From a virus (lineage: Duplodnaviria > Caudoviricetes), in IMG/VR virus record IMGVR_UViG_3300030090_000464, positions 1 to 30,642 of that record: DNA of 30,642 bases. The stretch is one strand, 5' to 3'. Each line of letters starts with the position of its first letter. The stretch's first letter is position 1. The position numbers were made by a program, and so were the translations under genes. Positions 15,901-17,564 of this stretch are shown here, piece by piece. The notes beneath the pieces are model-generated. The model made no database searches. It worked only from the letters and a program-made list of their open reading frames with translations, and had not been told where the DNA came from.

Positions 15901-16092
15901 ATGGCTACCAAGAAGACCAAGAAAAAATCTACCGTTAACAAAGCTGGTAATTATACTAAACCTACTATGAGAAAGAATTTGTTTAATAAAATTAAAGCAG
16001 GTTCCAAAGGAGGTAAGCCCGGACAATGGAGCGCACGTAAGGCTCAGATGTTGGCTAAACAGTATAAAGCAAAAGGTGGTGGATACAAATAA
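15901..16092 (+). CDS. Basic small protein, DUF5872-like N-terminal part
   Basis: NYTKPTMR...IKAGSKGGKPGQWSARKAQMLAKQYKAKGGGY motif. Confidence 0.8.
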   Translation: MATKKTKKKSTVNKAGNYTKPTMRKNLFNKIKAGSKGGKPGQWSARKAQMLAKQYKAKGGGYK

Positions 16093-16334
16093 TGGCACTT
16101 AAAAAATCTCAAAAATCTTTAAAGAAGTGGACTAAACAGAAATGGAGAACTCCTAGTGGTAAGAAGTCTTCAGAAACTGGAGAAGTCTATGCTCCTTCAG
16201 CTACTATAAAAAAATTAAAATCAACTAAAGCTGGAAGAGCAAAGCTTGCAGCAGCTAATAAAAAGAAAAGAGAAGCTACTAAAAAAGGTAAACAACATGC
16301 AAAGCATGGACTACATAAAGGAAAAAAACGATGA
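16092..16334 (+). CDS. Basic small protein, DUF5872-like C-terminal part
   Basis: SQKSLKKWTKQKWRT...TGEVYAP...ANKKKREATKKGKQH; TAATG-coupled to the previous ORF. Confidence 0.75.
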   Translation: MALKKSQKSLKKWTKQKWRTPSGKKSSETGEVYAPSATIKKLKSTKAGRAKLAAANKKKREATKKGKQHAKHGLHKGKKR

Positions 16335-16645
16335 GAGAAGAATACAAAAAAGGAAGTAAAGCTAAGAAAAAAGATTCACGCTTAAAAAATGCAGGAGTCT
16401 CTGGCTATAACAAACCTAAAAGAACTCCGAGTCATCCTACTAAATCTCATGTAGTAGTAGCAAAAGTTGGAGATAAAATAAAAACTATACGGTTTGGACA
16501 ACAAGGTGTTAGAGGAGCAGGTAAGAATCCTAAAACTGCTAAAGATAAAGCACGTAAAAGATCTTACTATGCTAGACATAATGCTCAAGATGCCAAGCCA
16601 TCTAAGCTTAGTGCTAGGTATTGGTCACATAAAGTAAAATGGTAG
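16331..16645 (+). CDS. Basic small protein, DUF5754/DUF6321-like
   Basis: KPKRTP...KSHVVVAK...IRFGQQG...RSYYARH...SARYWSHKVKW motif set; ATGA overlap. Confidence 0.75.
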   Translation: MREEYKKGSKAKKKDSRLKNAGVSGYNKPKRTPSHPTKSHVVVAKVGDKIKTIRFGQQGVRGAGKNPKTAKDKARKRSYYARHNAQDAKPSKLSARYWSHKVKW

Positions 16646-16673
16646 TAATTATTATGTAATATTAAATAATACA

Positions 16674-16720
16674 CGTTCATCCTTTACAGGACGGAAGTAG
16701 GCATAATGCTGAAGGAACGC
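16674..16720 (+). ncRNA. Glutamine-I riboswitch (glnA RNA motif)
   Basis: CGUUC-A-UCCU-uuac-AGGA-CGGAAGUA-GGCA-uaa-UGCU-GAAG-GAACG-C. P1 = 16674-78/16715-19, P2 = 16680-83/16688-91, P3 = 16700-03/16707-10, with the GGAAGUA/GAA E-loop junction of the glnA motif. Lies 5' of a YRG-peptide gene. Confidence 0.88.
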
Positions 16721-16756
16721 ATTGATGATGTTTATCAATCTAACTGGAGGTATATT

Positions 16757-16915
16757 ATGACTGAGTACTATAGAGGCTTTAAAAATGAAAACGAATCTGA
16801 AACATTTTCTGGTATGAAATCTGGAATTTATAGAGGAGTAAAGTGGTATGCAACAACAACAACAAATCAAAACAAAAAAAGAAAAAGAAGAGCATCTAAA
16901 ACAACAACAAAATAA
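16757..16915 (+). CDS. DUF4278-like YRG-motif peptide (52 aa; start re-called from 16706)
   Basis: SD GGAGG at 16746-16750, ATG at 16757; MTEYYRGFK...SGIYRGVKW has two YRG motifs, the hallmark of peptides downstream of glutamine riboswitches. Confidence 0.75.
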   Translation: MTEYYRGFKNENESETFSGMKSGIYRGVKWYATTTTNQNKKRKRRASKTTTK

Positions 16916-16931
16916 AAGGCATAATCAGTAA
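16848..16931 (+). CDS. Putative Gln-rich leader/coupling peptide (27 aa; not in ORF track)
   Basis: MQQQQQIKTKKEKEEHLKQQQNKRHNQ; SD GAGGAG at 16833-16838; TAA 16929-16931 overlaps the ATG at 16931. Confidence 0.55.
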   Translation: MQQQQQIKTKKEKEEHLKQQQNKRHNQ

Positions 16932-17155
16932 TGGGTGTAGAAGATTTTTTTGGTGGGCCTGAACTACCTGAAACAAGTGTTATAAAAACAAATGCAGATG
17001 TTGTAGCTCATGTAGCTGAAGCTATAGCAGGTTCAAATGATTTAGATTTATCTAAAGCTTTATTTGAAATATTAAATAAACACTCTGAAGTTGTCTTGGA
17101 AACAAGTCAAAAGATAATGTGTAAATATAAAATGCATTTACAATCAGTCAAATGA
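16931..17155 (+). CDS. Hypothetical protein (74 aa)
   Basis: ORF track; phage-like codon usage; ATGA overlap with next gene. Confidence 0.7.
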   Translation: MGVEDFFGGPELPETSVIKTNADVVAHVAEAIAGSNDLDLSKALFEILNKHSEVVLETSQKIMCKYKMHLQSVK

Positions 17156-17355
17156 TTGAGCCAACATCACCATCAATACCTGTTGGTACATGGGCTAAAC
17201 ATAATACTACAGAAGTAGTTAGACATGATAAGAAGAATGGAGAAGAGCTTAGACTACAGACAGTCTTCAGGACTGTTTACTATGAGTTTGCTGATGGTAG
17301 AGTTCAACTAAAAAATTATACATCTCAAAACTCTACGATAAACTTAACTGCTTAA
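17152..17355 (+). CDS. Hypothetical protein (67 aa), last gene of the + arm
   Basis: ORF track; stop overlaps the convergent stop in TTAA at 17352-17355. Confidence 0.65.
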   Translation: MIEPTSPSIPVGTWAKHNTTEVVRHDKKNGEELRLQTVFRTVYYEFADGRVQLKNYTSQNSTINLTA

Positions 17356-17564
17356 CGTAGAGCCTGTAATTCTTTTTCTAAATAACCGTGAAGGTTTTCT
17401 AGTTTTAGAAGACCTTCACGTATTACTTTTCTTATAAGAATCTTATCATCATCTTCTGCAAATATTTTAGATACTGCTTCTTCTGGTAGCTGGCTAAGTT
17501 CAGTAACCAGCGTACCTTTAGAATCTATCATAATTTTGAATGATAATATATTTCCTTCGTTCAT
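17352..17564 (-). CDS. Hypothetical protein (70 aa)
   Basis: ATGA overlap with nrdB stop; last gene of the - arm. Confidence 0.7.
   Translation of the reverse strand: MNEGNILSFKIMIDSKGTLVTELSQLPEEAVSKIFAEDDDKILIRKVIREGLLKLENLHGYLEKELQALR

Follow-up and report, generated by a model that had tools for sequence, protein, structure and literature searches.

A glutamine riboswitch and a DUF4278-like reading frame beside an apparently undescribed portable Gln-rich micropeptide in marine phages

The window, the whole 30,642-nucleotide stretch of DNA that was analysed, is an IMG/VR record (30.6-kb) of about 60% completeness and encodes a T7-type DNA polymerase, a primase-helicase and an endolysin. 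The DNA polymerase is closest to those of the Pelagibacter phages HTVC115P, 104P and 103P (49-50% identity), and the host is probably not a cyanobacterium. The locus described here is found where the plus-strand arm ends, among a cluster of small basic ORFs, and all of its features are on the plus strand. Three Lys/Arg-rich small proteins encoded at 15901-16645 correspond to phrog_17747, 14910 and 7595; for the phrog_17747 protein, the viral collection is estimated to contain ~13,000 matching stretches, and the order of this small-gene cluster is shuffled among relatives. Around the same cluster, a fragment judged by eye to be an IscU/NifU-like Fe-S scaffold lies immediately upstream in a related phage (L119:1-306), and an Rfam Mu-gpT-DE RNA (RF03012, 64.5 bits) lies near a 15901-type gene (L223:839-892). 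The 104-aa basic protein of phrog_7595 (16331..16645) ends at the left edge of a 286-nt accessory module (16642..16927), which comprises an AT-rich spacer, a riboswitch aptamer, a YRG-repeat ORF and a Gln-rich ORF and is missing in close relatives. It is followed by the gene of a 74-aa protein (16931..17155), a stable gene of this phage group, and by that of a 67-aa protein (17152..17355), the last gene of the arm; neither protein has a family. A terminator-like hairpin (17387..17420) marks the meeting point of the two gene arms, with one such hairpin found against 0.5 expected in shuffles, which is weak alone.

The aptamer was identified with the Rfam covariance model RF01739, glutamine-I (glnA), at 16672-16723 (+), with 59.2 bits where the gathering score is 35 (E = 7.5e-11, model positions 1-53). 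Standard pairs are present at all counted positions of helices P2 and P3 in 17/17 variants of this phage group, and one position in each helix shows two-sided substitutions (C-G/T-A and G-C/A-T/G-T exchanges). The aptamer is a genuine member of the glutamine-I riboswitch family, and the glnA-type fold claimed at 16674-16720 in the original prediction was borne out by the Rfam match and by the P2/P3 covariation. The presumed expression platform (16721..16750) consists of a short hairpin at 16721-16739 and the Shine-Dalgarno (SD) sequence GGAGG at 16746-16750; the pattern that collected the 17 variants demanded a 3-prime hairpin and an SD, so that the conservation of both among them is by construction. 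Folding with P1 forced raised the unpaired probability of the SD in 7/14 loci and lowered it in 7/14; a switch in SD access was thus not reproduced by folding, which counts against the reading of the locus preferred below. Binding of L-glutamine and regulation of expression are described as demonstrated for a Synechocystis member in the accessible text of PMC6212724, and by analogy with gifB, where the glnA aptamer is reported to turn translation on (accessible parts of PMC6212724 and PMC6316151), the window aptamer would be an ON switch. No sigma-70-type promoter was found 5' of the aptamer in a promoter scan. Contigs from RNA runs X16, X17 and X18 cover the aptamer-YRG part at a depth of 2-8, which stems partly from the choice of query; these contigs cannot reveal starts or levels and give no basis for a separate transcript. 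With one search pattern, at least 92 viral stretches were found to carry the aptamer, and its first following ORF is a YRG ORF in at least 20 of 63 distinct viral stretches, by a strict rule that undercounts. Tandem glnA aptamers were seen in the marine viral contigs L017, L019, L024, L030, L076, L079 and L081, where they precede several non-YRG small ORF families, for example basic peptides with a terminal P-x-Y-I-x-x-N-P-[FW]-Y. A further variant (L200:992-1456) has a peptide ORF 5' of an aptamer whose P3 has a long insertion, and this aptamer shares sequence with the end of a small membrane-type ORF.

The GGAGG sequence precedes the predicted YRG-motif ORF, which is present at 16757..16915 and encodes 52 aa with two YRG repeats. 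Its match to PF14105 (16.5 bits, E = 0.011) lies below the Pfam gathering cut-off of 25.3; DUF4278 was the best match for 19/19 YRG ORFs scanned and was above the cut-off in 4. The window ORF has both the repeated YRG motif and the place directly 3' of a glutamine aptamer and, given its sub-threshold score, is called DUF4278-like only. Position 16757 was taken as the start because ATG 16706, the choice of the ORF caller, sits inside the aptamer and has no SD. The final ~22 residues are a non-conserved read-through across the Gln-rich ORF, and the tail past the last YRG runs to between 5 and 25 non-conserved residues across relatives. Where relatives have the order aptamer, YRG ORF, ADPK-type gene and Gln-rich ORF, the YRG ORF again overruns the next ATG, which directly follows YRGVKW; in ~8 relatives the gene after YRGVKW is the ADPK-type gene rather than the Gln-rich ORF. 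The overlap exists because the YRG ORF, stopless in this lineage, overruns the ATG that follows the last YRGVKW. Taken together, the variable tails and the ADPK-type layouts suggest that the window overlap is most probably the outcome of losing an intervening ADPK-type gene, and L146 and L153 resemble such stages. In the second YRG repeat, the Arg-Gly codons also contain an SD-like site, AGGAG (16834-16838), that may serve ATG 16848.

From ATG 16848, where translation would begin, an ORF of 27 aa with 9 Gln runs in the +1 frame to 16931, overlapping the YRG ORF as originally described. Against the Gln background of 4.1% in the 17 long ORFs of the window, the probability of 9 or more Gln in 26 residues is 5.7e-7, and none of the other small ATG ORFs, 121 in all over six frames, reaches 20% Gln. 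Pattern and profile searches gathered an unnamed marine-phage family with 112 distinct versions at the DNA level and 88 distinct peptides; in assigning their starts, one Gln was demanded close by. The peptides are 26-48 aa long with a median of 25% Gln, and 64/88 are 26-29 aa. Outside the search motif, dN/dS, computed with no correction for transitions, was 0.22 over 46 disjoint close pairs, compared with 0.58 and 1.69 in the shifted frames. Gln codons outside the motif had changed residue in 5/395 cases, compared with 54/530 for Lys and Glu combined, a comparison whose p value is optimistic since the pairs share ancestry. Judged from these substitution patterns, the hidden Gln-rich frame codes for protein and is under selection. 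A DNA-level element in place of a peptide was rejected because synonymous variation is seen. The peptides carry two Gln clusters whose spacing from the stop is fixed: counted back, and hence independently of the start, a Gln lies 16 residues before the motif in 86/97 contexts, a Trp lies 11 residues before the last Gln in 60/97, and 92/97 DNA contexts terminate 0-1 residues past the motif, a figure to which the search patterns contribute. For 86/88 peptides, the start of the following gene falls between -11 and +10 nt of the peptide stop. In phages unrelated to that of the window, the stand-alone peptide ORF was seen between nrdA and nrdB and also after a clamp-loader-like gene (L360 / L358, ~1440-1535). 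A 39-40-aa ORF between the 15901- and 16092-type genes of L310 and L344 matches the middle of the 44-aa form of the peptide and does not contain the Gln motif, which suggests that the peptide family may be modular.

The core motif, K-Q-Q-Q-[DN]-[PK]-R-H-N-Q, lies at 16899..16928 in the window, where the copy has Asn at a position that is Asp in 98% of contexts; the full C-terminal form is E-x-I-[KR]-Q-Q-[QK]-D-[PK]-R-H-N-Q. Conservation is 75-100% at Asp, Arg, His, Asn, Glu and Ile (for Asp, His and the last Gln partly by construction), and non-Gln residues are conserved as much as Gln. Over 151 contexts, the second Gln is replaced by Met in 6% and the third by Lys in 10%, and in several unrelated host proteins the conservation extends beyond the last Gln. 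A search of longer proteins, in which 8000 candidates were scored, returned the motif in 98 proteins of 85-431 aa that form 32 BLAST-unlinked groups; it is C-terminal in 13, N-terminal in 24 and internal in 47, the other 14 having a Met for Gln missed by the strict pattern. Among the 84 long proteins placed by that pattern, the motif is therefore N-terminal or internal in 71, and internal copies sit inside linkers. One copy per record was found in 13/13 matching records, several of which are fragments and one of which is a 99%-complete 170-kb genome, and the motif was absent from two near-complete close relatives. The motif is portable and single-copy per record, and both motif and peptide are common to podo-, sipho- and T4-like marine phages; among cellular genomes (185,579 species) there were two matches, both on phage-like contigs of one MAG. 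Fusions were seen to DHFR (before thyA) and to APS-kinase-like, DUF3310, glycosyltransferase, WYL_2, HldE-like and jumbo-phage structural-like proteins (loci L386, L406, L418, L419, L357, L400 and L452; proteins P0052-P0149), and the predicted structure of the WYL_2 fusion, with a pLDDT of 48, is too poor for interpretation. At the junction with a FabF-like gene (L418, L419), the motif is in frame on two different upstream proteins, and its copies differ by 3 synonymous changes and 0 residue changes.

This portability of position would be expected if the motif were a T4 CTS-like tag for capsid loading or processing, with its vicinity to the aptamer due to hitch-hiking in a hypervariable small-gene cluster, and one motif-bearing host protein family does have distant matches to jumbo-phage virion structural proteins. 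However, a tag should sit on several cargo proteins rather than occur once per record, and the motif is mostly stand-alone without cargo, occurs in podo-, sipho- and T4-like phages alike and is also found on metabolic enzymes. We consider a capsid tag improbable.

Proximity of the aptamer was then compared across the peptide family. It lies within 700 nt of 16 peptides, for 7 of them directly by way of the YRG overlap, and there is none near 59 peptides for which at least 600 nt of flank was seen; 13 more had too little flank. With 59/75 distinct peptides lacking an aptamer within 700 nt, the aptamer is not the constant partner of the Gln-rich ORF that the original prediction implied. The predicted linkage nevertheless has a counterpart in the data, as the aptamer is commoner near peptides of the small-ORF cluster type (16/45) than at cluster loci without a peptide (0/25 and 0/78), and all 16 linked peptides are of this type, compared with 0/30 in other contexts. 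A Gln surplus in riboswitch-linked alleles was considered and not supported, the Gln fraction being equal with or without an aptamer (median 0.25 in both, p = 0.79); runs of 5 or more Gln occur in 3/16 linked and 2/59 unlinked peptides. At a neutral anchor (47/80 loci usable, 32 haplotypes; aptamers called by pattern, with an Rfam check on 40/80 loci), 4 haplotypes had both elements, 3 the peptide only, none the aptamer only and 25 neither, which gives a Fisher p of 0.001, yet the nrdB tree (17 rows) resolves these into only 2 independent pairs. At a second anchor the peptide was present in 2/80 loci and the aptamer in 1/80, at the same locus (Rfam on 20). From the opposite direction, the peptide is present in 2 of 9 aptamer-anchored loci near cluster genes and is lacking in the aptamer-anchored L021, L034, L053 and L074. 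Among near-complete peptide-bearing genomes, 5/7 have no aptamer at all, 1/7 has one adjacent and 1/7 has one 30 kb away. These mixed whole-record and locus counts therefore indicate an association between aptamer and peptide that is not obligate and is so far not separable from shared ancestry.

The order of the parts was assessed at 12 loci with the 74-aa gene, 2 of which are incomplete upstream, leaving 10 usable. The window layout is found in 3 of these (and recurs in L191), the Gln-rich ORF occurs without aptamer or YRG ORF in 2, and 2 have neither module nor Gln-rich ORF; in the other 3 the aptamer, YRG ORF and Gln-rich ORF lie ~880 nt upstream, coupled to a 16092-type gene. The aptamer of L012-L014 is further upstream of the 74-aa gene, not absent. 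L004 has the 74-aa gene at 100% identity but no module, its upstream gene being TAATG-coupled straight to the 74-aa gene, and one contig of run X15 joins 16641 to 16928, which is the L004 layout. Genes 3' of the Gln-rich ORF number at least a dozen and are mutually unrelated, for example nrdB, thyA, FabF-like and tail genes, and 11/16 aptamer-linked peptides are coupled to the 16092-type gene. The co-conservation expected of a cassette was thus found in part: the Gln-rich frame is under selection and abuts the next gene in 86/88 peptides, but the parts are gained and lost independently and the downstream partner varies. Both predicted overlaps, TAATG into the 74-aa gene (16931) and ATGA into the 67-aa gene (17152), are present, and overlaps of -1 or -4 are ordinary in this arm (5/10 other junctions; 7/12 counting all). 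The predicted model of the 74-aa protein, a two-helix hairpin, is generic and matched only a near-identical twin; this gene is not a dedicated effector of the module, and both the 74-aa and 67-aa genes are likely passengers. Searches with the 74-aa gene, the module, the 44-aa peptide, the WYL_2 fusion and the 16092 gene gave no cultured-phage match, within the limits set by low-complexity filtering.

The original prediction held that the riboswitch and the Gln-rich ORF are two sensors in series, evolved as one cassette that gates the 74-aa and 67-aa genes as effectors according to host nitrogen status. In the window the 74-aa gene is indeed downstream of both elements, and the same layout is shared by 3/10 homologous loci and L191. 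A fixed cassette is contradicted by the 7/10 loci that break this layout, by L004 and the X15 contig, which have no module, and by the 11/16 aptamer-linked peptides that are coupled to the 16092-type gene instead; the reading is very improbable.

The Gln-rich ORF had also been read as an attenuation leader. A run of Gln codons that is conserved and above background, as expected of such a leader, is present. However, no attenuator-like structure was found at the end of the window ORF (z = +1.62, no terminator-like site) or across 87 relatives (median z +0.32; z < -2 in 5/87). Conserved non-Gln residues and the motif inside long proteins set the ORF apart from a simple codon-run leader and, because ORF-end structure is missing, non-Gln residues are conserved and there is no fixed operon, classical attenuation is unlikely.

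A less classical form of cis action deserves more weight. The Gln-rich ORF might be a portable cis sensor, in which ribosomes would slow down or arrest at low (or else high) levels of Gln-tRNA or free glutamine and so tune any gene that overlaps its stop, with a second layer added where a riboswitch lies beside it. In many marine bacteria Gln-tRNA is made via glutamine-dependent transamidation, and Gln was changed far less often than Lys and Glu (5/395 and 54/530). Short peptides prevail (64/88 at 26-29 aa), stop and start abut in 86/88, the coupled partners include nrdB, thyA and FabF-like genes, and the motif is retained at one junction across two fusions (L418, L419). The aptamer is near 16/45 cluster peptides and 0/25 and 0/78 peptide-free loci, and the Gln clusters at a fixed stop distance, together with the Trp spacing, resemble W12/P24 of TnaC as given in the accessible part of PMC10941005. 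Against this, ORF-end structure is lacking (median z +0.32; 5/87 below -2), tight gene spacing is the norm in this arm, and the motif is N-terminal or internal in 71/84 long proteins. Gln-to-Met and Gln-to-Lys swaps occur, residues beyond the last Gln are conserved, Gln content is no higher beside the aptamer, and the association comes from ~2 independent contrasts. We regard a cis sensor as possible, with a clear minority share of the probability. The specific form in which Q-Q-Q-D-[PK]-R-H-N-Q is a portable phage glutamine-responsive stall, pacing infection to nitrogen in unrelated marine phages and sometimes placed behind a riboswitch, is slightly more doubtful still.

An action in trans is favoured because of the single copy per record, the free position of the motif, the Met and Lys swaps and the conservation past the last Gln. 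Several points count against it: Gln is conserved beyond Lys and Glu, the motif of the peptides is at the C-terminal end, the next gene abuts and the motif is retained at the FabF-like junction. The C-terminal placement and the next gene within 10 nt (86/88) are both compatible with a cis-acting stall. One particular trans target has a precedent in IF17, of which the module could be a split analogue, with the YRG ORF as the DUF4278 half and the Gln-rich peptide as an IF7-like half that inhibits host glutamine synthetase at high glutamine. The peptide motif may resemble IF7, and order and regulation are the same here. In the accessible part of PMC6316151, DUF4278 makes up the N-terminal half of IF17, with the part that binds glutamine synthetase located C-terminally. 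However, the peptides gave no IF7 or IF17 match in Pfam, NCBIfam and PDB sequence searches, most have no YRG ORF or aptamer, and the host is probably not a cyanobacterium, which makes a split IF17 quite improbable.

The explanation preferred here, with moderate confidence, is that a mobile glutamine riboswitch with its DUF4278-like gene was placed directly before an independent Gln-rich micropeptide gene whose product binds a host component, the 74-aa and 67-aa genes being passengers. In this mechanism bound glutamine would likely turn on the YRG peptide, and the start site nested in the YRG codons would likely extend the switch-on to the micropeptide. The micropeptide would most likely act in trans, its own sequence-specific motif binding the putative host target. 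The new element is the core motif of the Gln-rich peptide, the riboswitch half being already known. That a motif of 10-14 residues stays constant across dozens of otherwise unrelated proteins suggests either a host target common to marine phages or a new kind of nutrient-sensing stall, and either reading, if true, bears on how phages read oceanic nitrogen limitation.

The Gln-rich peptide family had no significant match in Pfam, NCBIfam, PHROGs (window copy) or the ESM Atlas clusters searched, and its best match among PDB sequences (E = 0.029) was judged to be chance. Nothing relevant to the combination or the motif was found in the literature searched, which took in few subscription journals. 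Amino-acid attenuation leaders of the trpL/hisL kind are short ORFs enriched in one amino acid. The Gln-rich ORF shares this single-amino-acid enrichment and differs by its conserved non-regulatory residues, by having no terminator/antiterminator and by downstream genes that are not for glutamine biosynthesis. With TnaC, as far as the accessible part of PMC10941005 goes, it shares a short ORF, conserved residues at a fixed distance from the stop (a feature here partly due to the search patterns and untrue of internal copies) and an aromatic residue 11-12 positions upstream. Unlike TnaC, the Gln-rich ORF is known from sequence, shows no terminator or rut-type partner, has its motif also inside long proteins and precedes a variable downstream gene. 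Glutamine riboswitches are reported in the marine phages Melnitz, Mosig and AG-345-P14 (PMC9004378), and in cyanophages such as S-CREM1 (PMC9964418); for SAR86 and Prochlorococcus populations they are reported as deletions (PMC12379486), each as given in the accessible text. The published phage examples share with the window the use of RF01739 as a marine-phage accessory element; in the accessible portions of PMC9004378 and PMC9964418 they belong to myoviruses, are tied to ssrA or nitrogen genes and come with no mention of a Gln-rich peptide, whereas the phage of the window is nearest HTVC103P-type pelagiphages by DNA polymerase. The claim that the combination is undescribed stands for the Gln-rich peptide, which is apparently new, and falls for the aptamer with a DUF4278 ORF, which is the published default, the glnA aptamer preceding a DUF4278 ORF in 25/28 cyanobacterial genomes in the accessible text of PMC6212724. 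The likeness to the cyanobacterial gifB/DUF4278 riboswitch described there lies in the shared aptamer family and in the SD and DUF4278-like YRG ORF that come within 40 nt after the aptamer. The differences are that the module here is in a phage late operon, that its YRG ORF is short, below the cut-off and without a recognisable IF7-like half, and that this ORF overlaps a second peptide gene. The locus thus combines a riboswitch-DUF4278 module that is already known, though newly arranged, with an adjacent portable peptide that is apparently undescribed.
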